Virus record (IMG/VR): IMGVR_UViG_2579778535_000009
Location: 1 to 10,970 of that record
Length of the DNA stretch: 10,970 nucleotides
Source: a virus
Taxonomy: Duplodnaviria; Heunggongvirae; Uroviricota; Caudoviricetes
Direction: 5' to 3' (one strand)
Position numbers and translations under genes: made by a program. The notes below the pieces were generated by a model. The model saw only the letters and a list, made by a program, of their open reading frames with translations. It did not search any database and had not been told where the DNA came from. How positions within the stretch are numbered: position 1 is the stretch's first letter; each line of letters starts with the position of its first letter. This document shows, in pieces, positions 1 through 10,970 of the stretch.

Positions 1-344
1 TTCAGCGTTTCCCGAAAATCAGCACTTCGCGCCCGGATAGTCAGGCGGTCCGGTGCGCCAGTGTGTTCAATCTCGTCCACTGTGAATGCCCCTTTCGGGA
101 AAAGCGGCTGCCCCTTCCAGCCCAGCGCCAGCGTAATAACCGCACCACGGCGCGGCAGCACGATTTTTCCGTCAGCGTCATCCAGCTCCAGATCAAGCTG
201 GTCCGCTTCAAAGCCCCGGTTATCCGTCAGCGTCAAACTCATCAGGCGGTTATCCAGCACAGTGGTGATATCCCTGCCCTCAATACTGATGCTGAATGCG
301 GGAGTTTTGTTGCCTTTGTTAAGCAGTTCAGAGCTGAAATTCAC
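1..344 (-). CDS. D: Phage tail protein D (gpD / late control D family), N-terminal part; ORF continues past the left edge of the window
   Basis: Absent from the ORF track because there is no stop inside the window. The minus-strand frame opens after a TAA at 368-366. The candidate GTG start at 344-342 overlaps the stop of gene A and is preceded by a GGAGG-type Shine-Dalgarno. Translation [76 protein letters not shown]... resembles the conserved N-terminus of P2 gpD / Mu P family as I recall it (recollection, not a search). Plus-strand ORFs 61-372 and 63-425 are its antisense shadows. Confidence 0.5.
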
Positions 345-2110
345 GACAGCAGCCCTCCCACCGTTTTACTGATATCGCTTACCGGCGCACCTGCTTTTTT
401 GTCACCCTGTTGCCTTGCCGCCTGACCAGCCAGCAAGCGAAGTTCACGATAAGCCTGACGCCCCGGAATACCAAAGAAGCGGAATTGCTGAACACGATGC
501 AGAGACGCCCAGGCATTCACGTATTCAGCGTTATCACGCAGAGATTTACCCGTTTCCTTGCTGATCTCGCCAGCCAGACCACGACCGTCAATGTTCTTAC
601 TGATATATTTCGCGATGTAGCTTGTCGGCGTTCCTTTGCGCGGGTTAATCAACTCAGACTTAAAGCGCGGCCCAGTGTTATTGCCCAGCTCCTCGCGGTC
701 TTCACGGATGGCAAACTTACGCAGTAATGCAGTAATGGCACGGCGGTCTTTTTTGCGCATGAAACACAACAGGTGCCAGTGAACTGTGCCGTCATGATGC
801 GGCTCAGCCACCCGCACGCCATACCAGCGCAACCCGGCTTTGTGCATCGCCTTACGAAATGCAGCAAACATGCCGACCAGATAATCGCTGCTTTGTCTTA
901 CCGTCGCGTTTGTCCAGGTCGGGTTTGGTCTGCCGTTATTTAGCGTGGAATGGAAACGCGACGGACAGGTGATAGTGTAGAAAACGGCGCAGTCACCGCG
1001 CATTTCCGCGATAAGCTCCAGACCTTTAACACAGGCCATCATCTCATTGCGGCGATGCGCAGGGTTGCTGCTGCTGGCGTTTACCACATCCTCCATGTCC
1101 AGCGTGTCGCCGTCTTCGTTCACCAGTTCATGAGAACGGAAAAACTCCAGCGACTTACGGCGCTGCTCACGTTTATGCATCACGGCTTCATAGCTGACAT
1201 AAGGAGATGCTTTTTTGCTGACCAGGCAAACAGCGCGCAACTGCTCTTCCCGCCATTCGCAACGCATCTTCCATAATTTCCGATACCACCAGTCGCCGCA
1301 CAACATACGCGCCAGCGAACCCGGAATGAGTTCATAGGGCACGGGTTTACGGCGGTTTCTTTTCCGACGGAGTTGCTCAAACGCAGGTGGGATGACATCC
1401 AGACGCAGGGTTTCCGCCGCCACCTTTTCCCATGTCTTGCGGATTTCTTCTGGCTTAACGTCATCGGTGGCATACAAATCGCCACAAGCTGCATCAAGGC
1501 ACATGCTCATATGCGCAGCTACCAGGGTGGACAGGCGTTTCACATGATCCTGACTCATTTCAGGCAGAATCAGCAGGCCGTCCAGCCCTTCATGGCTTGC
1601 CATAAAGCGAAAAGAAGTGGATAGCTGACTCTCGCGTACATGCTCCAGTCGTTCCAGACATGGCTTAATCGTCTCACGCAAATAGCGGGAATAAGCCTTT
1701 GGCCTGCCCAGGCTGCTGAAGTATTCAATACGTTGCATCAGCGGCTTGCTGATATGGGAAGGCTGGGCGTTGACGTCCGCCAGAATGACCATATCCGGAT
1801 TAAAACGCTGCTGCTCATGCGCCAGCTTTGCCCGACTAATGAGCTTATCCTGCTCCATTTCGCGCTGGACAGGATCACGGGATTCATTAAAGAAATAACG
1901 CTCCCAGACCTGATCACTCAGCGCCTCACGGCGCAGCTGTTCCTGCTCGTTATCGGCAGCGTACAGAGTGATCAGGTTTGAAAGCGCAGAAACCGGCGCA
2001 ACTTCCGCCGGGTCCAGATAAGGGTTAATGGCCTTTTTCGGGCTGTTCCATGAGAATGCTGCGGCGATCTCGTTAAAGCCGCTGCAGTTGTTCATATCAG
2101 CATGGCTCAT
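341..2110 (-). CDS. A: Phage replication initiation protein A (P2 gpA / 186 A family rolling-circle Rep endonuclease), possibly C-terminally shortened
   Basis: 589-aa ORF. Carries an HUH-type motif ([10 protein letters not shown]) and a paired-tyrosine motif ([13 protein letters not shown]) typical of P2 A-type nicking proteins. The start ATG overlaps the dam stop (ATGA). Only about 87 aa follow the YIAKY motif, far fewer than in P2 A as I remember it. Confidence 0.85.
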
Positions 2111-2964
2111 GCACGCACTCCGTACACGGCAGAACTATCCACGCCACACGAAGGATCAAATCCCACCCAGCAGCGCGGCCCGGAAACAGCGATGATTTCT
2201 GTTGCTGATTTACCCTCGCCAGCTGCCACACCGATGCTGCGTTTTACCTTGATATAGTGGTGAGTAAAATTGCGATACAGCGAACGAATCAGGGATGTGT
2301 CACTGTTAGAAACAATGACCGGATGTCCTTCAGATGATCGATGTTCAAGAACGGATGCCAGGTGATACTGGTCATCTTCAGTGAAACCATCAGTGTGATA
2401 GCCGGAAAACGTACCGTCATACGGCGGATCGCAATACACCACATCCCCCGCCTTCAACATCGCCAGCGTTTCATCAAAGCTGGTGCAGATAAACGTTGCC
2501 CGCTGGGCTTTTTCTGCAAATGCGCGAATTTCTTTTTCAGGGAAATACGGATTTTTATAATTACCGTAGGGAATGTTGAAATGCCCACTCTTGTTATAGC
2601 GACATAAACCACGGTAACCGTGACGATTGAGATACAGGAAATATACCGCTTTCATGAAATCAGTAATTTCAGTTGAGTAATTAAACTCCTGCCTTATGTT
2701 GTAATAAGCTACCTCCCTGTTTGCGATCTCAAATAAAACTCTGGCGCGAGATATAAACGATTCACAATCAGCGGCAACCTTTTTATAGAGGTTGATTAAA
2801 TCAGGATTAATATCCGCAACCAGATAGCTGGGGTAATCCGTCTCCATCATCACAGCACAGGAACCCGCGAAAGGTTCAACCAGTCGCGGGCCAGCAGGAA
2901 GATGTTTTTTCAGTTCGGACATTATGGCAGTTTTATTTCCCGCCCATTTCAGGATGGTGCTCAT
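2107..2964 (-). CDS. dam: DNA adenine methyltransferase (Dam family, N6-adenine MTase)
   Basis: The ORF track gives 2107-3024; the likely true start is the ATG at 2964 ([11 protein letters not shown]...), preceded by GGAGG. The N-terminus LKWAGNK...[11 protein letters not shown] and the DPPY motif ([10 protein letters not shown]) match E. coli Dam-type methyltransferases. The start overlaps the stop of the upstream zinc-finger ORF (ATGA). Confidence 0.85.
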
Positions 2965-3188
2965 ACAGCACCTCCGTTGTAATGTTTGCCTTTCAGCTCT
3001 GCAATTTCCTGACAGGTAATGCAAAGCTGCACACCCGGAATGGCACGGCGGCGTGCTGGCGGAATTGGCGCTTCACACTCAATGCAAAGCACGCGGGACA
3101 CGCCCGGCGTTTTGGCACGGGCAGCACGGATATGGCGTTGGCGTTCTTCTTCAACGCGCTGCTGTACGAGATCCATTGCATCAGCCAT
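2961..3188 (-). CDS. TraR/DksA-family C4 zinc-finger protein (phage early protein)
   Basis: 75 aa with CxxC-(17)-CxxC (CIECEAPIP...CITCQE) near the C-terminus, as in TraR/DksA-like phage proteins. Its start overlaps the upstream ORF stop (TAATG). Confidence 0.7.
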   Translation of the reverse strand: MADAMDLVQQRVEEERQRHIRAARAKTPGVSRVLCIECEAPIPPARRRAIPGVQLCITCQEIAELKGKHYNGGAV

Positions 3189-3427
3189 TAGTGAATCTCC
3201 TGCGCTTCGTTCTGGATTGCTTCAGCAGTCACACGAAGCAGTTCTGCCGCTTCGACGTGGGTTAGCTGGCGGGATGTGATATGACACGCCAGGCTATCAA
3301 GGCGAGCTGCCATTGCTTCAGCCCTTGCCCGGCGTTCTTCCAGACGAGCCTCTGTCAGTAAAATATTAAGCCCTGCGTCATCCGGTCCGGTTTTGGTCGT
3401 GAGGGTTTCAATATTACGCATAATCAA
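3188..3427 (-). CDS. Hypothetical small early-operon protein (79 aa)
   Basis: ORF in the co-directional early operon. AGGAG lies 8 nt upstream of the ATG at 3427. Translationally coupled to the downstream zinc-finger gene. No recognisable motif. Confidence 0.5.
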   Translation of the reverse strand: MIMRNIETLTTKTGPDDAGLNILLTEARLEERRARAEAMAARLDSLACHITSRQLTHVEAAELLRVTAEAIQNEAQEIH

Positions 3428-3487
3428 TTCTCCTGAATTTAGATAAAGGGATACTGGCGGGTTTACGCCATTAATTTCATTAGTTGG

Positions 3488-3829
3488 TTAATTCGGCATG
3501 GTTAGCCGTCTGGGAAATAAGCTCACCACTGCACGAAAATGATTCATTGCTTTAATCAACTCCCGCTTTTCGTCAGTGGTCAGCTCATTAATGCTGATGC
3601 TATGACGTTCAGCTGGAATTTTTGCCATAAAGAATATGGCAGCCAGTGCCCGTTTATTTTGTTCGCTATTAATATCCCGTGGATCACGCATATCTTTAAT
3701 AAACCGTTCAAGCTCTGACTCAATATTCAGACCAAAAACTTTCGCCCTTAACTCCGCAATATGATTAAGTCCATTCAGGCGTTCACCGGGTCTTAATGGA
3801 ACAGTCGCCGCAGCGCCTTCAATAGCCAT
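3488..3829 (-). CDS. Hypothetical early-operon protein (113 aa)
   Basis: ORF in the early operon with a G-rich SD upstream of the ATG at 3829. Overlaps the 3' end of the upstream 66-aa ORF by 37 nt. Function unknown. Confidence 0.5.
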   Translation of the reverse strand: MAIEGAAATVPLRPGERLNGLNHIAELRAKVFGLNIESELERFIKDMRDPRDINSEQNKRALAAIFFMAKIPAERHSISINELTTDEKRELIKAMNHFRAVVSLFPRRLTMPN

Positions 3830-3993
3830 TGGTTCCCCCGTTTTTTCGTTGATAGTTCTGCCAGCAATTCATCTTGCGAACGGCACGGATGCCAGCGTTT
3901 ACCATCCTCACCCATGATCCAGCCGTGACCGTAGTGCATTGCCGGACTTTGTTTTACCAGCAGCGATGCAAATGATGGTTCTTTCGTCAGCAT
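3793..3993 (-). CDS. Hypothetical small early protein (66 aa); positional analogue of 186 fil/dhr-type host-takeover genes
   Basis: The ORF track gives 3793-4023; the ATG at 3993 (MLTKEPSF...) is preceded by GAGGTG and avoids overlap with cII. Function inferred from position only. Confidence 0.45.
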   Translation of the reverse strand: MLTKEPSFASLLVKQSPAMHYGHGWIMGEDGKRWHPCRSQDELLAELSTKKRGNQWLLKALRRLFH

Positions 3994-4000
3994 AAGCACC

Positions 4001-4510
4001 TCACAGCAAACCGAATGAAGCACCGAGGCCAGTTACAGTATCAACTGCACTTGCCATCGCAGGATTAACCTGTAAACGGGCCTGCAATGAAACAGCAGCT
4101 AACGCCATCAGTCGTGTAACAGAGTTAATGCTGCTGATAGCATCACGACGACCTGCACTGGTTTTTACATCGCCAGATACCGCACCTGCAGCAACACGCC
4201 CGATCTCTGCGGTTGCACTCATGACGTAATGTGGCAGTTTCTCTTTTGCCACCTCATTAATCGGTACACATGGCAGGCAGTGAATCTGTGCCAGAAAACC
4301 GTCTACCAGCGTTGAATCTTCCGTCAGATCGGTAAGTAGCCAGATATCTGGCGCATTGAGCTGATGCGGTTGATCTGGGTTGAGTTTGTTTCGCAGAGTC
4401 TGGACATTCATTCCTGCACGTTCTGCCAGCTTCGCCATATTGTGACGAAGTGCAAAAGCTCTACAGGCTTCATCAAAATGCGGGTGTTTGGAAATCTTAT
4501 AATCAAACAT
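4001..4510 (-). CDS. cII: Phage regulatory protein CII (186 CII / CP76 family lysogeny-establishment activator)
   Basis: 169 aa, the same length as 186 CII. The sequence MFDYKISKHPHFDEACRAFALRHNMAKLAERAGMNVQTLRNKLNP... closely matches my recollection of 186 CII, including the HTH region. It is the second gene of the lytic operon. Confidence 0.8.
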   Translation of the reverse strand: MFDYKISKHPHFDEACRAFALRHNMAKLAERAGMNVQTLRNKLNPDQPHQLNAPDIWLLTDLTEDSTLVDGFLAQIHCLPCVPINEVAKEKLPHYVMSATAEIGRVAAGAVSGDVKTSAGRRDAISSINSVTRLMALAAVSLQARLQVNPAMASAVDTVTGLGASFGLL

Positions 4511-4542
4511 GCTACCCCCTTAGAAAGTTCTCATAATTGAAC

Positions 4543-4785
4543 TTACTTACCAACAATGACGCGGAAGTTGGAATGACCGAGGGATTCACGGACCTGATCG
4601 GTTTTGTACATTAAATAACGCAGGCTTACGCGGCCTTTGTTTTTTTCTTTCTTGACCATGTATTTAGCAAGCTGACCATGGTGAATTTTTTGATACACGG
4701 AGCCGCGGGAGATACCTTCCCATTCCGCGAACTCTGCAGGCGTAGCCATCTCTTTTGGTACACGAATTGAAATATCAGTGCTCAT
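4543..4785 (-). CDS. apl: Apl/Cox-type small HTH protein (excisionase / lytic-operon repressor), first gene of the early operon
   Basis: 80-aa ORF transcribed divergently from cI. HTH-like segment PAEFAEWEGISRGSVYQKIHHGQL. SD GGGAGA upstream of the ATG at 4785. The assignment is mainly positional, by analogy to the 186 apl and P2 cox layout. Confidence 0.55.
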   Translation of the reverse strand: MSTDISIRVPKEMATPAEFAEWEGISRGSVYQKIHHGQLAKYMVKKEKNKGRVSLRYLMYKTDQVRESLGHSNFRVIVGK

Positions 4786-4820
4786 AGTGCAGTATCTCCC
4801 GATTAAGGTTTGGTTTACGT

Positions 4821-4890
4821 CGTTTTATCTCGTTTTACTTGATTCAATATTTGATACATCGAGATACTACGATCCAATATTTGATACGTC
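4821..4890. repeat. Operator-like direct repeats in the cI/apl switch region: 20-bp repeats at 4841-4860 and 4871-4890 (GATYCAATATTTGATACRTC, 18/20 identical) and a tandem 10-bp repeat CGTTTTAYCT at 4821-4840
   Basis: Seen directly. The 20-bp copies are 30 bp apart. One overlaps the -35 and spacer of the pR candidate; the other lies just downstream of its -10. Confidence 0.45.
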
Positions 4891-4892
4891 AA
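4864..4892 (-). promoter_or_regulatory. Candidate sigma70 early lytic promoter (pR-like): -35 TTGACG (4892-4887), 17-bp spacer, -10 TAGTAT (4869-4864)
   Basis: Read on the minus strand as CCTGTTGACGTATCAAATATTGGATCGTAGTATCTC. Correct orientation and distance (about 70 nt) upstream of the apl start. Confidence 0.4.
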
Positions 4893-4904
4893 CAGGATTA
4901 AAAA

Positions 4905-5537
4905 ATGATACAGGTAAAGGTTGGAGAGAATACAGGGGGAAGAGAGGCTATCCATAGACTAATGGCAGCCTATGATTTCAAGTCCAGACAGCAACTTTGC
5001 GATCACTTAGGCGCATCAAAAAGCACCATGGCAAACAGATACTTAAGAGATAGTTTTCCTGCAGAGTGGGTGATTCAGTGCGCCTTGGAAACAGGAGTTT
5101 CTTTACTGTGGCTAACCACCGGACAGGGGGAGCCAGGTCCAAACATTGAACCTAAAAAAAATATCAATTCCGTGAACTCCAGCAAGGTTGTACCTCTTTC
5201 TGAACTAGTATCTCCTGAAATTGACAAGGCGACTCTCAACGGTGGTTTATTGGTCGATGCTGGAAAAGCAATCATTGATAGCAGCATACTCCCCTCAGAC
5301 TCAAGCAACCTACTGCTGGTGACTACTTCTGGTGATTCTTATTTAATAGATCGCAACCAAACACCACCAGTAAATGGTATGTGGTTAGTCGATATCGACG
5401 GGATAAAAAGCATCGTTAAATTGACTCGACTCCCGGGAAACAAATTAGTAGTGCATCAGGATGATTCATCGTTTGAGTGCGGTCTGGATGACATTGAGGT
5501 AGTAGGCCGCGCACTGAAAATCATTAAGAGCCTTTGA
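4905..5537 (+). CDS. cI: Immunity repressor CI (186-type)
   Basis: Divergent from apl and immediately upstream of int (cI stop TGA 5535-5537, int ATG 5539). HTH-like segment SRQQLCDHLGASKSTMANRYL. Start uncertain: the ATG at 4905 has AGGA 7 nt upstream; the ATG at 4962 would give 191 aa, close to the size of 186 CI. Confidence 0.7.
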   Translation: MIQVKVGENTGGREAIHRLMAAYDFKSRQQLCDHLGASKSTMANRYLRDSFPAEWVIQCALETGVSLLWLTTGQGEPGPNIEPKKNINSVNSSKVVPLSELVSPEIDKATLNGGLLVDAGKAIIDSSILPSDSSNLLLVTTSGDSYLIDRNQTPPVNGMWLVDIDGIKSIVKLTRLPGNKLVVHQDDSSFECGLDDIEVVGRALKIIKSL

Positions 5538-5538
5538 T

Positions 5539-6570
5539 ATGACCATCAGAAAACAGCCGAACGGAAAATGGTTGTGTGAGTGCTATCCCAATGGACGCAA
5601 TGGCAAGCGCGTGCGTAAGCAATTTGCCACGAAAGGCGAAGCCATTGCGTTTGAAAGCTTCACAATGGAAGAAGTGAATAAAAAACCGTGGTTGGGTGAA
5701 AAGGATGATCGGCGACGCCTATCAGAATTAATTGAGCTTTGGTATTCCCTGTATGGTCAGACACTCGCAGACCCCAAGCGCCTCATGGCGAAACTTAGAA
5801 TTATCTGTAATGGTCTAGGCGACCCCATCGCCTCTGAGCTGACAGCCGGAGACTTTACGAAATACCGCGAAGCACGGTTAAAAGGTGAAATACGAAATGA
5901 AGATGGCACGCTTATGTCGCCCGTTAAGCCCCGCACGGTAAACCTTGAACAGCGCAATCTATCATCGGTGTTCGGTACATTAAAAAAACTAGGACACTGG
6001 TCAGCACCAAACCCGCTGGCAGGACTTCCGACCTTCAAAATTGCCGAAGGTGAGCTGGCTTTTCTTTCCACGGACGAAATCAAGCGCCTGTTGGCGGCAT
6101 GTGCTGAATCTCAAAGCCCTAGCTTACTAATGATTGCAAAAATATGCCTAGCTACTGGCGCACGGTGGAGTGAAGCAGAAAATCTGCAGGGCCATCAGTT
6201 ATCCAAATACCGCATCACTTATACCAAGACGAAGGGCAAGAAAAACCGTACCGTGCCAATATCTCAGGATCTTTACAACGAACTCCCTAAAAACAGAGGA
6301 AGGCTATTCACCCCATGCAGAAAAGCCTTTGAACGGGCAGTAAAACGAGCTGGTATTGAACTGCCAGAGGGACAATGCACCCACGTTCTACGCCATACAT
6401 TCGCCAGCCATTTCATGATGAACGGCGGAAACATACTGGTACTGCGCGATATTTTGGGCCATGCCGATATAAAAATGACGATGATTTACGCCCATTTTTC
6501 TCCAGACCATCTGGAAGATGCAGTAACGAAAAACCCTTTGAACTTTATATACTTGTCGAATAACATGTAA
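5539..6570 (+). CDS. int: Tyrosine integrase (P2/186 Int family)
   Basis: 343 aa. The N-terminus (NGKWLCECYPNGRNGKRVRKQFATKGEAIAFE) resembles P2-type Int. Catalytic motifs ARWSE, HVLRHTFASH and MIYAHF (Tyr) are present. It reads toward the ssrA fragment. Confidence 0.85.
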   Translation: MTIRKQPNGKWLCECYPNGRNGKRVRKQFATKGEAIAFESFTMEEVNKKPWLGEKDDRRRLSELIELWYSLYGQTLADPKRLMAKLRIICNGLGDPIASELTAGDFTKYREARLKGEIRNEDGTLMSPVKPRTVNLEQRNLSSVFGTLKKLGHWSAPNPLAGLPTFKIAEGELAFLSTDEIKRLLAACAESQSPSLLMIAKICLATGARWSEAENLQGHQLSKYRITYTKTKGKKNRTVPISQDLYNELPKNRGRLFTPCRKAFERAVKRAGIELPEGQCTHVLRHTFASHFMMNGGNILVLRDILGHADIKMTMIYAHFSPDHLEDAVTKNPLNFIYLSNNM

Positions 6571-6610
6571 CTTATAATGTAAGTACACAAAAGTGATCTT
6601 AATCTTAAAT

Positions 6611-7606
6611 ATGAAACCTAATTTAATTTCACGTAAACAGTACCAACACCTCAAAAATGAGTTAAATAGACTTGAGAGCTTACCATATAGACGAGGAAAC
6701 AACCCAACCAACCTCAGAATATTAAAACTAAGAGAAGATCTAACAAACTCTCTTGTTGAATCCAGAAAAAGAAATTCAAAAAAAATTAATGGAGGAAATG
6801 TTAGCTGTATAATATGCAAGAAAAATTTCAAAAGTGCTCATGGCCTATATGAGCACTATCGCGCCAAGCATAGCAATATGATTGAACACCCTACCTCATT
6901 GTTTAATAAAGAAATAAATGGCAATACAACACTGCTTGAAAGCATTTCGCATCCTGTCACAAAAGGTATACCAATAGCAGAACACGATAAAAAAATATCA
7001 TCCATTACGCTAAACAGGGAAACTAAATATTTCAATGTAGATGCGTATAATCTGGCATGCCTTTCATTAACAAAAAGTGAAGCAATAAAAATCGCTAAAG
7101 ATGAATTATTATCAAGGCAGTTTCTTGGACAAAAAAACACTCTAGAACCTACTCTACCGCCAGTCATATTTATAAATCCCTCTGATACAATTAGTATACC
7201 AGTTGTCACAAAAGGCAATACTCATCTGCAAACAGTATTACAGCGTGACTCTGGCGAACAGGTTGACTTTAAAAAAAGGGTTCTAAAAAACTTCTCAAAT
7301 GTATGCGCAATAACAGGTTACAACCTCCCAGTATTGCAGGCATGTCACCTTGAACCATTTTCTCAGACCCAAAACCATAGAACCAACAATGGAATACCTC
7401 TTGAACCTACCCTTCATGCCTTGCTTGACCGAGGTCTACTAGCCATACATCCAGATAATTTAACTATTCATTTTGCTATCGATTGCTATTACAAAAATAT
7501 ATATGAAGGAAAAAATATCAAACCTCATAAGATTGATTTAGATAAAAATTCACTGCTAATAATTTGGAAGAACTTTCTTTTGAATGTTAAAAACAGCCAA
7601 CCGTAA
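6611..7606 (+). CDS. AT-rich cargo gene: protein with an N-terminal C2H2-type zinc finger and a C-terminal HNH-type (HNH_2-like) nuclease domain; candidate defence or accessory nuclease
   Basis: The ORF track gives a GTG start at 6593; the first ATG is at 6611. Zinc finger: CIICKKNFKSAHGLYEHYRAKH (C-x2-C-x12-H-x4-H). C-terminus: CAITGYNLPVLQACHLEPF...NNGIPLEPTLHALLDRGLLAIHPD, which matches the CAITG...HI.P...NGL.L...H.LFDRG pattern of HNH_2 nucleases as I recall it. Base composition is visibly much more AT-rich than the flanking phage genes. No obvious SD. Confidence 0.6.
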   Translation: MKPNLISRKQYQHLKNELNRLESLPYRRGNNPTNLRILKLREDLTNSLVESRKRNSKKINGGNVSCIICKKNFKSAHGLYEHYRAKHSNMIEHPTSLFNKEINGNTTLLESISHPVTKGIPIAEHDKKISSITLNRETKYFNVDAYNLACLSLTKSEAIKIAKDELLSRQFLGQKNTLEPTLPPVIFINPSDTISIPVVTKGNTHLQTVLQRDSGEQVDFKKRVLKNFSNVCAITGYNLPVLQACHLEPFSQTQNHRTNNGIPLEPTLHALLDRGLLAIHPDNLTIHFAIDCYYKNIYEGKNIKPHKIDLDKNSLLIIWKNFLLNVKNSQP

Positions 7607-7732
7607 GTTAGCCTAAAATTGGCGACAACTTGGCGGCAGAGCATTAAAAATGCGTAAAACGGATAAACACAGGATAATAGTAACACACTGTTTTTAAACG
7701 CAAACTACTGTTTTCATTGTATTAAAAATAGT

Positions 7733-7777
7733 ATGTAGGAATTTCGGACGCGGGTTCAACTCCCGCCAGCTCCACCA
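7733..7777 (+). ncRNA. ssrA: 3'-terminal 45 nt of tmRNA gene ssrA (T-arm and acceptor 3' strand ending CCA); attachment-site copy, not a full gene
   Basis: ATGTAGGAATTTCGGACGCGGGTTCAACTCCCGCCAGCTCCACCA matches the 3' end of E. coli ssrA as I recall it. Upstream sequence is AT-rich coding DNA with no tmRNA 5' domain (no GGGGCTGATTCTGG about 360 nt upstream). Confidence 0.8.
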
Positions 7778-7810
7778 ATTTTTGATATATTGAAGTTCAG
7801 TGAAGTCTAT

Positions 7811-7845
7811 CAAGCCCGCATGGAACCAGCCTTGCGGGCTTTTTT
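7811..7845 (+). terminator. Rho-independent terminator-like hairpin (AAGCCCGCA ... TGCGGGCTT followed by TTTTTT)
   Basis: Perfect 9-bp inverted repeat with a T-run, about 35 nt downstream of the ssrA CCA end and upstream of the intA start. Confidence 0.45.
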
Positions 7846-7902
7846 ACGTCTATAGTAGTCTACCGAGAATTGCTAGAATCTACTCGTTATGGCACCCTTT
7901 TT

Positions 7903-7946
7903 GGGACCCAACACAAAGGGTCCAAAACATGAGGGTCCCAAACATG
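7903..7946. repeat. Three copies of a GGG(A/T)CC(C)AAA motif at exact 15-bp spacing (7903, 7918, 7933), the first inverted relative to the others, overlapping the intA RBS and start
   Basis: Seen directly: TTGGGACCCAA cacaaa GGGTCCAAAACATG a GGGTCCCAAACATGG. Candidate protein-binding array. Confidence 0.4.
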
Positions 7947-9173
7947 GCAAAAATCGCTAAGAAGCTCACTGACACTGAAATCAAAAGCACCAAACCTGCC
8001 GAGAAAGAGGTTAACCTTTTTGACGGCGATGGTTTGCTCCTGCGAATCGCCCCCTTAGCGAAGGGAGGAAAGAAAAATTGGTATTTCAGATATGCAGTGC
8101 CTGTGACCAAAAAGCGAACTAAGGTGAGCTTAGGAACCTATCCTCACCTTACACTTGCGAAGGCACGAGCTTTACGTGATGAGTACTTGTCGTTGCTTGC
8201 AAATGGTATAGACCCACAAGTTCATAACACCCACAAAGCCAATGCCCTTAAGGATGCAACGGAACATACATTTCAAGCAGTAGCCAAGAAGTGGCTTGAT
8301 GAGAAAGTCAAAACGTCAGGCATCTCCCAGGATCATGCTAACGACATCTGGCGAAGCCTAGAGAGAAATATCTTTCCAACGTTGGGTGATACCCCCATTA
8401 AGGAGATTCGCCCTAAAATGCTTAAACAGCATTTAGACCCCATAGAAAAACGAGGTGTCCTTGAAACACTTCGCCGCGTCATATCCCGCCTGAATGAAAT
8501 TTTCCGCTATGCAGCAACAGAAGAACTCATAGAATTCAATCCGGCTGACAACCTGGGGCAACGGTTCAGCAAGCCAAAAAAACAGAATATGCCAGCATTA
8601 CCCCCTTCCGAACTCCCCCGCTTCCTGGTTGCTCTAAACAATGCTTCTATCCGTTTAGAAACAAGGCTACTGATTGAGTGGCAACTTCTCACATGGGTTC
8701 GCCCTGGTGAAGCTGTTCGCACAAGATGGTCAGATATTGATATAGAAACCAGCATGTGGAACATCCCGGCGGAGTTTATGAAAATGAAGAAGCCTCACAA
8801 AGTTCCACTGAGCAAAGAATCTTTGCGAGTCTTGGATTCAATGAAAGCCATCAGCGGGCATAGAGAGTGGGTTTTTCCCAGTATCAAAGCTCCACTCAAT
8901 CACATGCATGAACAAACAGCTAATGCGGCTATAATCCGTATGGGCTTCGGAGGTGAGCTTGTAGCTCATGGTATGCGATCAATCGCTAGAACGGCGGCTG
9001 AGGAGTGTGGCAAGTTTAGAACTGATGTCTTAGAAGCCGCCCTTGCCCACTCGAAAAAAGATGAAATAATTGCAGCCTACAATCGTGCAGAGTATCTCAC
9101 AGAACGTGTGGTTCTCATGCAATGGTGGAGTGACTATGTTTCGTCTCAAAAATACAAAGTTATTGCCGCATAA
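7944..9173 (+). CDS. intA: Tyrosine integrase, P4/CP4-57 IntA family (N-terminal DUF4102-like arm-binding domain)
   Basis: The ORF track gives 7800-9173, but that start would run through the terminator hairpin. The ATG at 7944 (MAKIAKKLTDTEIKSTKP...) has GAGGG 8 nt upstream. Conserved blocks DDIWRSLERNIFP, WQLLTWVRPGEA, HGMRSIARTAA, DVLEAALAH and YNRAEYL match my recollection of CP4-57 IntA. It lies immediately downstream of the ssrA 3' end, as in CP4-57. Confidence 0.85.
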   Translation: MAKIAKKLTDTEIKSTKPAEKEVNLFDGDGLLLRIAPLAKGGKKNWYFRYAVPVTKKRTKVSLGTYPHLTLAKARALRDEYLSLLANGIDPQVHNTHKANALKDATEHTFQAVAKKWLDEKVKTSGISQDHANDIWRSLERNIFPTLGDTPIKEIRPKMLKQHLDPIEKRGVLETLRRVISRLNEIFRYAATEELIEFNPADNLGQRFSKPKKQNMPALPPSELPRFLVALNNASIRLETRLLIEWQLLTWVRPGEAVRTRWSDIDIETSMWNIPAEFMKMKKPHKVPLSKESLRVLDSMKAISGHREWVFPSIKAPLNHMHEQTANAAIIRMGFGGELVAHGMRSIARTAAEECGKFRTDVLEAALAHSKKDEIIAAYNRAEYLTERVVLMQWWSDYVSSQKYKVIAA

Positions 9174-9455
9174 CTCTTCCATGATGGGTTAACTATCTTG
9201 ATTTATTTGAAGAATTAATGATCACACCATTAACCTATGTGGACTAAGCATAGCCATTTACAAATGGGTACCTTGAGGCCACATAACGAAAGCTGTCGGT
9301 CATATCAGCTAAATAATTCACATCTCTTCTCGATTATCATACACCTCGAAGAACTACCAAATTCGCTCTAATCAATGATAAAACAGTTGAATTCGGTTAA
9401 AATTTGATCAATTTTATCCTCTACATTGTATTGAATCATCCATGAGGTTTTGTGC

Positions 9456-10970
9456 ATGGCTAGCGGAAATGAAAAAAATCATAGAGTTAGGGTCGCACAG
9501 TACTTGAGGATGTCTACCGACCATCAGCAATATTCTTTACATAATCAGTCTGAATATATCAAAGATTATGCTGAAAAGAACAATATGGAAATCGCTTATA
9601 CCTACGATGATGCAGGTAAGAGCGGAGTCAGTATCGTAGGCAGGCATTCTTTGCAGCAGTTACTTAGCGATGTAGAACAAAAGAAAATAGATATACAGGC
9701 TGTATTATTTTATGATGTGAGCCGTTTTGGTCGTTTTCAAAATAGTGATGAAGCTGCATATTATTCCTTTCTATTTGAAAGAAATGGTGTAGATCTTATA
9801 TATTGTTCCGAACCTATACCCACTAAAGATTTCCCTTTAGAGTCCTCTGTTATACTGAATATAAAAAGATCAAGTGCTGCATATCACAGCAGGAATCTAT
9901 CTGAAAAGGTATTTATAGGGCAAGTAAATTTAATAAAGCTTGGTTATCATCAAGGCGGTATGGCTGGTTATGGGCTGAGACGTCTTTTAGTAGACGAAAA
10001 TGGCATAGCTAAAGAAATATTGAATTTCCGCAAAAGAAAGAGTATTCAAACAGATAGGGTAATATTAATTCCGGGACCAAAAAATGAAATAAAAATTGTA
10101 AATAGAATCTATGATCTCTTTATAGATAGTAACGTCCCAGAATTCATTATTGCTGAGAGATTAAATGAACAGAGCATACCTGCAGAAAATGGAACATCAT
10201 GGACTCGTGCAAAAATACATCAAATTTTGACAAATGAAAAATATATTGGAAACAACATATATAACAAAACCTCATCTAAACTAAAAAGTAGGCTTGTAAA
10301 AAACCCCAAACATGAATGGATTAGATGTGACAAGGCATATAAACCAATTATTTCAAAGAAAAAATATAATAAAGCTCAAGAAATAATTCAGCTCCGATCC
10401 ATTCATTTGACTAATGAAGATCTATTAGAAAAGCTAAAAGAAAAATTAGAATCTAATGGAAAACTATCAGGCTTTATCATTGATGAAGATGATACAGGCC
10501 CTTCATCTTCTGTTTATAGAACCCGATTTGGTGGTCTTTTAAGAGCATATACTTTGATTGGTTATAAGCCAGAACATGATTACAGCTATCTCCAAATAAA
10601 TGAAGCACTAAGATCATTTTACTCAGAGATAATTGAGGATTTTAAGGGCGAAATATTAAAAAGTAACTGTCATATAGACGAGTATAAATATTACCCAATG
10701 CTTTACATCAATGATGAGTTTTTAATTTCCGTCCTTGTTACTAAATGCATACATATGAAATCAGGTAAACTTAGATGGAAAGTCCGGTTTGATAACTCAC
10801 AGAAAGCAGACATAACAATTGTTATACGAATGAATTCACAAAATATTTCACCTCTTGATTTTTATATCATACCAAAGATTGAAAACGAATATAGTAAAAT
10901 GTGTATGTGGATTTGCCCCTATATTTCCAGACATCTGTTATCACTTAACCCATTACAAGCCCGCTGCCGC
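9456..10970 (+). CDS. Large serine recombinase (resolvase-type catalytic domain plus recombinase domain), AT-rich; 3' end beyond the window
   Basis: Not in the ORF track. I translated 505 codons from the ATG at 9456 to the window end with no stop; GAGG lies 8 nt upstream. The N-terminus VAQYLRMSTDHQ...YDDAGKSGVS...LQQLL...SRFGR carries serine-recombinase catalytic motifs. The segment ILIPGPKNEIKIVNRIYDLF...AERLNEQSIP...GTSWTRAKIHQILTNEKYIGNNIYNK fits the recombinase domain of large serine recombinases. Confidence 0.75.
   Translation, partial: MASGNEKNHRVRVAQYLRMSTDHQQYSLHNQSEYIKDYAEKNNMEIAYTYDDAGKSGVSIVGRHSLQQLLSDVEQKKIDIQAVLFYDVSRFGRFQNSDEAAYYSFLFERNGVDLIYCSEPIPTKDFPLESSVILNIKRSSAAYHSRNLSEKVFIGQVNLIKLGYHQGGMAGYGLRRLLVDENGIAKEILNFRKRKSIQTDRVILIPGPKNEIKIVNRIYDLFIDSNVPEFIIAERLNEQSIPAENGTSWTRAKIHQILTNEKYIGNNIYNKTSSKLKSRLVKNPKHEWIRCDKAYKPIISKKKYNKAQEIIQLRSIHLTNEDLLEKLKEKLESNGKLSGFIIDEDDTGPSSSVYRTRFGGLLRAYTLIGYKPEHDYSYLQINEALRSFYSEIIEDFKGEILKSNCHIDEYKYYPMLYINDEFLISVLVTKCIHMKSGKLRWKVRFDNSQKADITIVIRMNSQNISPLDFYIIPKIENEYSKMCMWICPYISRHLLSLNPLQARCR

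Follow-up and report, generated by a model that had tools for sequence, protein, structure and literature searches.

A defective P2/186-family prophage in the ssrA 3' end of Escherichia coli, very probably left by a large deletion at a TA microhomology

Closest described prophages and satellites

The complete phages closest to the element described here are Elveevirus/186-like members of the Peduoviridae, which carry the same CI, Apl/Cox, CII, Fil, Dam and other early genes and are 96-99.4% identical to it on the A side and up to 100% identical on the D side. The retained 9.5 kb of the element is collinear with phage Cartapus (NC_070909), Klebsiella phage 4LV2017, Salmonella phage RE-2010 and a prophage of E. 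coli A41. Compared with the complete relatives, approximately 24-26 kb is missing, which for Cartapus amounts to about 71% of the genome. What remains shares 96.3-98.4% identity with that Elveevirus phage; with so much of the genome absent, a whole-genome identity criterion is inapplicable. The A41 prophage uses the ssrA attachment site, as the element does, and is 100% identical to it on the D side and 99.4% identical on the A side. Its gene order is int-cI/cox-cII-fil-...-dam-A-hyp-DinI-cargo-portal-terminase-head-lysis-tail-U-D-ogr, the portal and terminase genes corresponding to Q and P in P2.

The defective prophage of WS4437A-1 (NZ_CP035822) belongs to the same lineage, with 99.0% identity over positions 380-10911 of the window, a term used here for the whole 10,970-nt stretch of DNA analysed. 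It shares the ssrA site and the neighbouring island with the element, and has likewise been inactivated by an internal deletion, which joins the tail tube gene FII to the terminase gene P, is smaller and lies inside the interval missing here. Unlike the element, it keeps an 804-aa A, the Tum-like genes, the portal gene, E, T, U and D, and on the D side the identity is no higher than 96.9%. The two deletions could be either independent or nested events.

E. coli K-12 carries a cryptic P2 remnant, consisting of ogrK and the gpD pseudogene yegZ. In this remnant the D/ogr end is kept next to the att site while the rest of the prophage is lost, leaving just the C-terminal part of D together with ogr, whereas the element still has all of the lysogeny and early region, along with the beginning of D. 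P4-type satellites of P2 resemble the element in size, in carrying an integrase and in needing P2-type structural genes if packaged. The element differs from them in having no cos, no replicon of its own (primase/helicase and ori) and no helper-manipulating genes, and in arising directly from a helper-type phage by deletion.

The deletion junction and the missing interval

The window very probably holds one end of a defective (cryptic) P2/186-family prophage that underwent one deletion of about 24-26 kb at a TA microhomology. By sequence comparison, the retained part is closest to the genus Elveevirus, exemplified by Cartapus, and is integrated in the 3' end of E. coli ssrA. Parental alignments place the junction, which is unstranded, at window 380..381, where the dinucleotide TA is common to both parental sequences (2-bp microhomology). 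In a base-level three-way alignment, identity on the D/U side extends through 381 and identity on the A side begins at 380. Both flanks have matches at E = 0 in dozens of phage records and in over 1,300 E. coli genomes, and all of these alignments end at the same base. Across 57 phage records and the more than 1,300 E. coli genomes, the match ends at 380 on the A side and at 381 on the D/U side. This common stop base is far beyond chance. On the A side, all 43 related phage records with query coverage of 80% or more diverge at 380, as does every one of the 132 E. coli genomes in which the early region is closely related. Comparison with the progenitor-like A41 prophage revealed no homology beyond TA within 40 nt on either side of the junction, and neither breakpoint displayed extended homology or repeats, the expected sign of site-specific or homologous recombination, beyond this dinucleotide.

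The truncated replication gene A occupies 380..2110 on the minus strand and contains the authentic codons 1-577 of 804, as assigned by Pfam Phage_GPA, PHROG and alignments. It continues in frame into the 3' end of tail gene U (341..379, minus strand), whose last 12 codons (379-344) and TGA stop (343-341) now form the C-terminus of the A ORF. The 12 residues equal the U C-terminus of WS4437A-1, and the DNA alignment agrees. The product is an in-frame fusion, A(1-577)::U(last 12 aa), encoded by a 589-codon ORF at 341-2110 on the minus strand. Relative to the A proteins of Cartapus, WS4437A-1, P2 and 186, this ORF follows full-length A to residue 577 and then becomes the U C-terminus; full-length A measures 804 aa in Cartapus, WS4437A-1 and A41. 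The ORF matches Pfam Phage_GPA (PF05840) at E 3e-127 with all 321 model positions covered, and matches PHROG phrog_91 over profile positions 16-533 of 852 only. An HWH motif lies upstream of YIAKY (residues 498-502), so that a rolling-circle initiator of the Phage_GPA family, with its HUH region and the YIAKY tyrosines, is present in truncated form.

The original prediction of a 3'-shortened A with about 87 residues after YIAKY agrees with these data, the count being exactly 87 and the breakpoint falling after residue 577 in the proposed alignment to full-length P2/186 A. It had also read the GTGA overlap as A abutting D. The overlap exists on the minus strand at 341-344, where the TGA stop of the shortened A overlaps the GTG start of the D ORF, but it is the native U-stop/D-start overlap retained after the deletion, and the last 12 codons assigned to A come from U. 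Similarly, one large deletion was correctly anticipated, while the suggested size of about 20 kb and a join at the start of D were not borne out: the join sits within the last codons of U, 37 nt upstream of the A stop and D start, and the missing interval spans 23,754 bp when measured in phage Cartapus and 25,660 bp in the A41 prophage, a near-progenitor.

A single illegitimate recombination at the 2-bp TA in the integrated prophage would have removed these 24-26 kb, running from A codon 578 through the internal cos region of the prophage to 36 nt short of the end of U. Two nested deletions fit as well as a one-step deletion, and the smaller FII::P deletion of WS4437A-1 lies within the same interval. 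The lost DNA comprises the last 227 codons of A with the ori-homologous sequence inside them, Tum/DinI-like genes together with a LexA box, the cargo slot that separates A from the portal gene, the adjoining cos, and all head, lysis and tail genes up to U, leaving D as the sole virion gene. Loss of the ori, cos and the SOS antirepressor module goes beyond what had been predicted. A P2-tail-derived tailocin was also considered and rejected: the sheath, tube, baseplate and fibre cluster is absent, and D is the only tail-cluster gene in the window.

The ori was placed by homology to the GenBank-annotated P2 and 186 sites. The annotated nick sites at P2 29892 and 186 28576 fall in one alignment column, at approximately A residue 675 of the full-length relative, where the conserved ...CAATAACTGT core is found in a somewhat diverged form; within the window, no ori-like sequence rose above 10-nt chance matches. 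Full-length A is immediately followed by a perfect LexA box and by split Tum-like genes, of which the DinI-like one is 41% identical to the C-terminus of 186 Tum; the window contains no strict LexA box. The P2-cos-like sequence of WS4437A-1 maps within the interval deleted here. No cos-like match was obtained in the window, nor any P2-cos-like match in the WS4437A-1 stretch corresponding to 1.7 kb to its left.

Four different samples yielded the identical junction: one NCBI draft contig, a metagenome contig from ENA with 100% identity over 10,907 nt, and two contigs in Logan that derive from separate runs. Six contigs carry it overall. The A-D junction was found in none of 5,426 complete E. 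coli genomes and in no phage record, and an exact 31-nt scan detected no copy in GTDB representative genomes, JGI metagenomes or IMG/VR. Its identity in contigs from four samples, together with its absence from complete genomes and from the three collections, indicates that the junction is genuine, rare and recent.

Retained genes, attachment site and the D fragment

The retained genes form a 186-type switch with divergent cI-int and apl/cox-cII-fil operons, in the same gene order as in 186, Cartapus and A41. On the minus strand, an intact Dam-type N6-adenine DNA methyltransferase of 285 aa (2107..2964; Pfam MethyltransfD12, E 4e-76; length as in relatives) is followed by an intact TraR/DksA-type zinc-finger protein (2961..3188; Pfam zf-dskA_traR), an intact DUF2732 early protein (3188..3421; gene call and Pfam DUF2732, E 9e-29) and an intact DUF5347 early protein (3488..3829; Pfam DUF5347, E 7e-33). 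The same strand encodes a homologue of Fil, the 186-type cell-division inhibitor (3793..3993; gene call and Pfam Phage_186_Fil, E 5e-24), a CII-like lysogeny-establishment regulator (4001..4510; Pfam Phage_CP76, E 4e-43) and, as the first gene of the early operon, an Apl/Cox-like excisionase and repressor (4543..4785; PHROG 'Cox-like excisionase and repressor', E 5e-28). The plus strand carries an intact 186-type CI immunity repressor of 210 aa (4905..5537; Pfam Phage_CI_repr and Phage_CI_C), an intact tyrosine integrase of 343 aa (5539..6570; Pfam Int_N and Phage_integrase) and, between int and att, a low-GC HNH_2 cargo gene (6611..7606; Pfam HNH_2; GC 33-37%). All of these genes, namely int, cI, apl/cox, cII, fil, DUF5347, DUF2732, the traR-like gene, dam and the HNH cargo gene, are intact. 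A pR-like -35/-10 pair at 4892-4864, ahead of apl/cox, is a consensus match only, and the promoter and terminator scans, which did not exceed shuffle expectation, serve only to point to this site. The slot between int and att holds different genes in other strains, known anti-phage genes among them, and PADLOC returned only weak generic HNH matches on the element.

The int-proximal att (7733..7778, plus strand) is a 46-bp copy of the 3' end of ssrA (tmRNA), with a 100% match to the annotated ssrA end in WS4437A-1 and in the 500465 region. With this copy downstream of int in the window and the complementary ssrA junction in relatives, the alignments identify the 46-bp att copy as the displaced original ssrA end. 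ARAGORN and Rfam at gathering thresholds reported no tmRNA or tRNA in the window, which contains only the last 46 nt of ssrA; this end was detected by alignment to annotated ssrA. On the other side of the element, relatives display the order D-ogr-hyp-ssrA-smpB; the window itself does not extend to the remainder of D, to ogr/B, to the second att copy or to an intact ssrA.

The left end of the window contains the 5' part of the tail/late-control gene D (1..344, minus strand; DNA identity and PHROG), which begins with a GTG at 344-342 and runs off the left end after 114 codons. A Pfam search of this 114-aa fragment gave no match, so its identification as gpD relies on DNA similarity, PHROGs and a longer copy. 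The fragment matches phrog_52 'tail protein' at E 1e-53, and at the DNA level its identity to genes annotated 'late control protein D' is 96.6-100%: 100% for D of the prophages in E. coli A41 and 500465, and 96.6-98.4% for D of Cartapus and Klebsiella phages. The longer copy, on junction-bearing contig L005, spans 303 aa and contains PF05954 Phage_GPD. Other junction-bearing contigs run collinear with D up to residue 303, and all of them end within D, at residues 114, 124, 161 and 303. From these breaks we infer, tentatively, a second P2-like prophage sharing distal D. The prediction that the left ORF is D-like is thereby substantiated, as is that of a 9-10 kb element retaining the lysogeny switch, int, early genes, dam, the shortened A and D, whose genes were identified by Pfam and PHROG.

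Competing explanations and expected behaviour

The original prediction had left open whether the element was a decaying cryptic prophage or helper-dependent, and the first of these stands, whereas the second, given the lack of ori and cos, is not supported. A satellite-like mini-element of 9-10 kb, excised and then replicated and packaged by a co-resident P2-like helper, would be in keeping with a size of about 9.5 kb, near that of P4-type satellites, with the retention of int and apl/cox (and of ogr in relatives), and with the contig breaks within D, which hint that these genomes may also carry another P2-like prophage. It is nevertheless highly improbable. The window has no cos-like sequence, and the one in relatives falls within the interval lost here; the ori-homologous sequence is gone and the truncated A is the only replication gene; primase/helicase, capsid-size and helper-control genes are absent; all genes are ordinary 186-type early genes, 95-99% identical to those of complete phages; and the junction is a 2-bp illegitimate join present in six contigs only and in no phage or viral collection. 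A chimeric contig uniting A of one prophage with U/D of another is scarcely credible. The window is indeed a whole short-read draft contig that ends in repeats or likely repeats (IS2 on the right, D on the left), yet base for base the same junction occurs in four samples and three sources (NCBI draft, ENA metagenome contig, Logan), and the parental sequences have just 2 bp in common where they meet, leaving no repeat to mislead an assembler. That a phage lineage normally carries an A of about 590 aa followed by D is almost inconceivable, even though the ORF is open, in frame and keeps a complete Pfam GPA domain: it ends in 12 residues that form the C-terminus of tail protein U, relatives lose similarity at 380, and the phage, IMG/VR, GTDB-representative and JGI metagenome collections all lack the junction. 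In relatives, an 804-aa A (in the three inspected) precedes Tum/DinI-like genes, cargo, cos and the late region, and no complete genome has A abutting D.

A further reading adds to the deletion model rather than replacing it, namely a domesticated remnant under selection for immunity from CI, for Dam, for the HNH cargo gene or for interference with incoming relatives by a truncated A nickase. The retained genes are all intact, the catalytic core of A is kept, and the int-att slot holds known anti-phage genes in other strains. This addition is nonetheless unlikely: junction-bearing copies are rare and 100% identical over up to 10.9 kb, which makes the deletion recent and the intactness of the genes uninformative on selection; an in-frame fusion is expected by chance in one of three cases; and PADLOC supplies nothing stronger than generic HNH matches. 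It is quite doubtful, too, that the remnant acts as a host-beneficial module in which CI provides immunity, HNH and Dam act against incoming phages, and A(1-577)::U excludes relatives. In such a module, A(1-577)::U, a nickase core without its own ori, might nick superinfecting relatives at their ori or titrate their replication factors, and exclusion of this kind would, if true, be a function created by the deletion itself.

Under the preferred reading of a defective prophage, the att site adjoining the integrase is present, and the genes and sites for replication, packaging and morphogenesis are lost, including cos and the complete head/lysis/tail set, since A codon 577 runs straight into the last 12 codons of U. 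With no ori and a truncated A, the element is presumably unable to replicate; P2 A is cis-acting. With cos gone it should not be packaged, and it is probably unable to form particles or to be SOS-induced by itself, mitomycin C induction being predicted to be negative. CI should still be expressed, providing immunity against homoimmune phages, and the HNH cargo gene is possibly expressed from the element. If derepressed, the early operon would read through dam and the shortened A into D. Excision mediated by Int/Apl may still be feasible, but would lose the element.

The locus represents a clean example of prophage decay via a single microhomology-mediated deletion: its breakpoints are exact, a full-length relative is nearly identical, and a sibling occupying that ssrA site carries an independent deletion; beyond annotation its importance is small. 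It belongs in counts neither of inducible prophages nor of satellites, and a 589-aa 'replication endonuclease' with an abutting D fragment in such drafts is better annotated as a fusion or pseudogene.

Junction between genes A and U

The ORF of the replication gene A (window 341-2110, minus strand) comprises 589 codons, with the YIAKY motif at residues 498-502 followed by 87 residues, and its stop overlaps the GTG start of the next ORF in a minus-strand GTGA at 341-344, both as originally described. The left-end ORF (344-1, minus strand), the 5' part of a gene running off the left end of the window, is gpD, as had been proposed. It matches PHROGs phrog_52 'tail protein' (E 1e-53), its DNA shares 96.6-100% identity with genes carrying the annotation 'late control protein D', and a longer copy (303 aa) on contig L005, another contig bearing the junction, matches PF05954; a Pfam search of the 114-aa fragment gave no match.

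Across the phage collection, A-side similarity ends at window 380 in every record, while D-side similarity spans window 1-381, which takes in D and the last part of the 'tail protein' gene upstream of it. Aligned three ways with the E. coli WS4437A-1 prophage, the sequence switches at 380/381, with the dinucleotide TA alone common to both parents, and no homology beyond TA was found within 40 nt on either side of the junction using the progenitor-like prophage of E. coli A41. Authentic A comprises codons 1-577, with codon 577 (GTA, Val) straddling the junction and reading the same from either parent. Codons 578-589 and the stop of the fused ORF come from tail gene U, whose last codons are read here in frame; the A'::U' fusion has therefore taken over the GTGA from U, where it is the natural overlap of the U stop with the D start. 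Being a one-in-three chance expectation, the in-frame fusion needs no special explanation.

Of the 852 positions of PHROG phrog_91 ('nicking at origin of replication'), the match of the A ORF extends no further than 533. Full-length A is 804 aa in the complete Elveevirus phage Cartapus (NC_070909), WS4437A-1 and A41, so that 227 A residues are missing here and these relatives carry no naturally short A before D. The original prediction of a deletion joining the 3' part of A to the D region thus stands in outline, with its breakpoint placed 37 nt too far downstream on the coding strand: A is indeed cut short, the join following codon 577 and leading into the end of U, not lying at the D start.

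Retained genes and the deleted interval

The window is the complete draft contig AYQQ01000096.1 (assembly GCA_000503395.1), which it matches at 100%, and both its flanks and its closest matches are from E. coli chromosomes. About 9.5 kb of the prophage remains after the deletion, within the 9-10 kb anticipated, and all retained genes of the remnant are full length. On the minus strand, D and A are accompanied by Dam (2107-2964), a TraR/DksA zinc-finger protein (2961-3188), a DUF2732 protein (3188-3421), a DUF5347 protein (3488-3829), Fil (3793-3993), CII (4001-4510) and an Apl/Cox-like excisionase (4543-4785), with 186-type CI (4905-5537) and the prophage integrase (5539-6570) on the plus strand. 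These gene calls agree with the proposed retention of the lysogeny switch, int, early genes, dam, A and D.

In the A41 prophage, which matches the window at 100% identity along the D side and at 99.4% along the A side, the gene order is int-cI | cox-cII-fil-DUF5347-DUF2732-traR-dam-A-(63-aa ORF)-DinI-like-cargo-portal-terminase-scaffold-capsid-...-lysis-...-baseplate-fibres-sheath-tube-E-T-U-D-ogr. The interval missing from the window measures 25,660 bp on A41 and 23,754 bp on Cartapus (33,368-bp genome; from similarity coordinates), supporting a large deletion and revising its size from about 20 kb to 24-26 kb.

GenBank annotates the A nick sites at 29892 in P2 and 28576 in 186; both fall in one protein-alignment column, corresponding to residue about 675 of the 804-aa A, where the conserved origin core ...CAATAACTGT is kept in the DNA. 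This origin-homologous site lies 98 codons past the breakpoint, and a search for the core in the window returned nothing better than 10-nt chance matches. Just downstream of A, WS4437A-1 carries a perfect LexA box (CTGTAAATATAAACAG), a 63-aa ORF and then a 77-aa DinI-like ORF (box at about 33342 and Tum-like ORFs at 32851-33283 of locus L002, NZ_CP035822.1 2226000-2275000). The DinI-like ORF shares 41% identity with the C-terminal portion of Tum, the LexA-controlled antirepressor of 186 (BLASTP, E 3e-24); the 63-aa ORF resembles the Tum N-terminal part by eye, with no significant BLASTP match. These sequences raise the possibility that 186 Tum is divided between two small ORFs in phages of this group. 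The window holds no strict LexA box. The P2-cos-like sequence of WS4437A-1 falls within the interval deleted here, with no cos-like match in the window, and the gpA-gpQ cargo/defence hotspot known in P2-like phages (bioRxiv 10.1101/2021.01.21.427644) is lost along with cos.

Origin and nature of the remnant

Six contigs on record encode this 589-aa fusion protein exactly; the four presented here are from an NCBI draft, the ENA metagenome assembly ERZ27280783, and Logan assemblies of runs SRR16848239 and ERR271429. These four are 100% identical across the junction, the metagenome contig (L003) being identical to the window over 10,907 nt. An assembly chimera is ruled out, because the same junction recurs in different samples and sources with just 2 bp common at the join. 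None of 5,426 complete E. coli genomes spans the junction, although 1,306 match one of its two sides and 132 have the closely related early region; exact-match scans of GTDB representative genomes, JGI metagenomes and IMG/VR for its 31-nt string gave nothing. Given the identical junction contigs and this absence elsewhere, the deletion is genuine, rare, and recent or clonal. The four contigs, collinear with D as far as they reach, end inside it at different residues (114, 124, 161 and 303), which suggests a second P2-like prophage with near-identical distal D in these genomes.

On a prophage map of attL-int-cI-cox...A...cos...U-D-ogr-attR, A and D share a strand, and a simple deletion between them would therefore give exactly the observed structure; two nested deletions would be the alternative to one event. 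A single illegitimate deletion at the level of microhomology, within the integrated prophage, is the explanation that fits best. Lacking ori, cos and the C-terminus of A, the element would be neither replicated nor packaged, helper or not, and loss of the Tum-like module would leave it unresponsive to the SOS signal on its own. Immunity through CI should persist, and Int and Apl may still permit excision, upon which the element would be lost. A derepressed early operon would be expected to run on via dam and A'::U' into D, preserving U/D translational coupling. Since the known copies are identical, the full-length genes are uninformative about selection.

The element is a cryptic prophage of the P2/186 family. 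A functional phage is rejected, as the window contains no late genes and no cos; a P4-type satellite likewise, lacking cos, a replicon and helper-control genes; and a tailocin, D being all that remains of the tail cluster. The interpretation as a decaying cryptic prophage is supported, refined by the exact breakpoints, the size and the loss of ori, cos and tum, which removes the helper-dependent alternative also raised. Events of this type are well known, and the remnant adds one more. Among its closest known analogues are its own intact relatives Cartapus, 4LV2017, RE-2010 and the A41 prophage, together with the P2 remnant (ogrK/yegZ) in E. coli K-12. The WS4437A-1 prophage, 99% identical and at the same ssrA site, is another of these, with a different internal deletion that links a fragment of FII, the tail tube gene, to a fragment of the terminase large subunit (L002 28249-29692). 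Decay in this lineage is not unique to the window prophage, the WS4437A-1 deletion being either a separate event or an earlier, nested one.

Neighbourhood at ssrA

At ssrA the integrated elements lie in tandem: the prophage remnant, a displaced 46-bp copy of the ssrA 3' end (7733-7778; not reported by ARAGORN or Rfam) and a P4-type integrase island (second integrase, 7944-9173), with a recombinase/ParB island beyond. A serine recombinase gene (9456 onward) is cut about 35 codons short of its normal end (518 aa) by the terminal 63 nt of IS2 (10908-10970), which show 100% identity to the ends of sequences annotated 'IS3-like element IS2 family transposase'. L003 and WS4437A-1 lack this IS2. The contig ends at the right edge of the window because of IS2.

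Between the prophage integrase and att lies an HNH_2 gene of low GC (33-37%; 6611-7606, plus strand), with weak generic HNH matches in PADLOC and PHROG 20585 of no known function. The slot is occupied in other E. coli strains by an 'anti-phage dCTP deaminase' or by unrelated hypothetical genes, and so has the look of a variable site for cargo or defence genes. RefSeq NC_049342.1 ('Escherichia phage 500465-1', L009) is a prophage prediction, not a clean phage genome, including the host genes smpB, ratA, recN, grpE and ffh, and its gene A is split by an IS100-family insertion.
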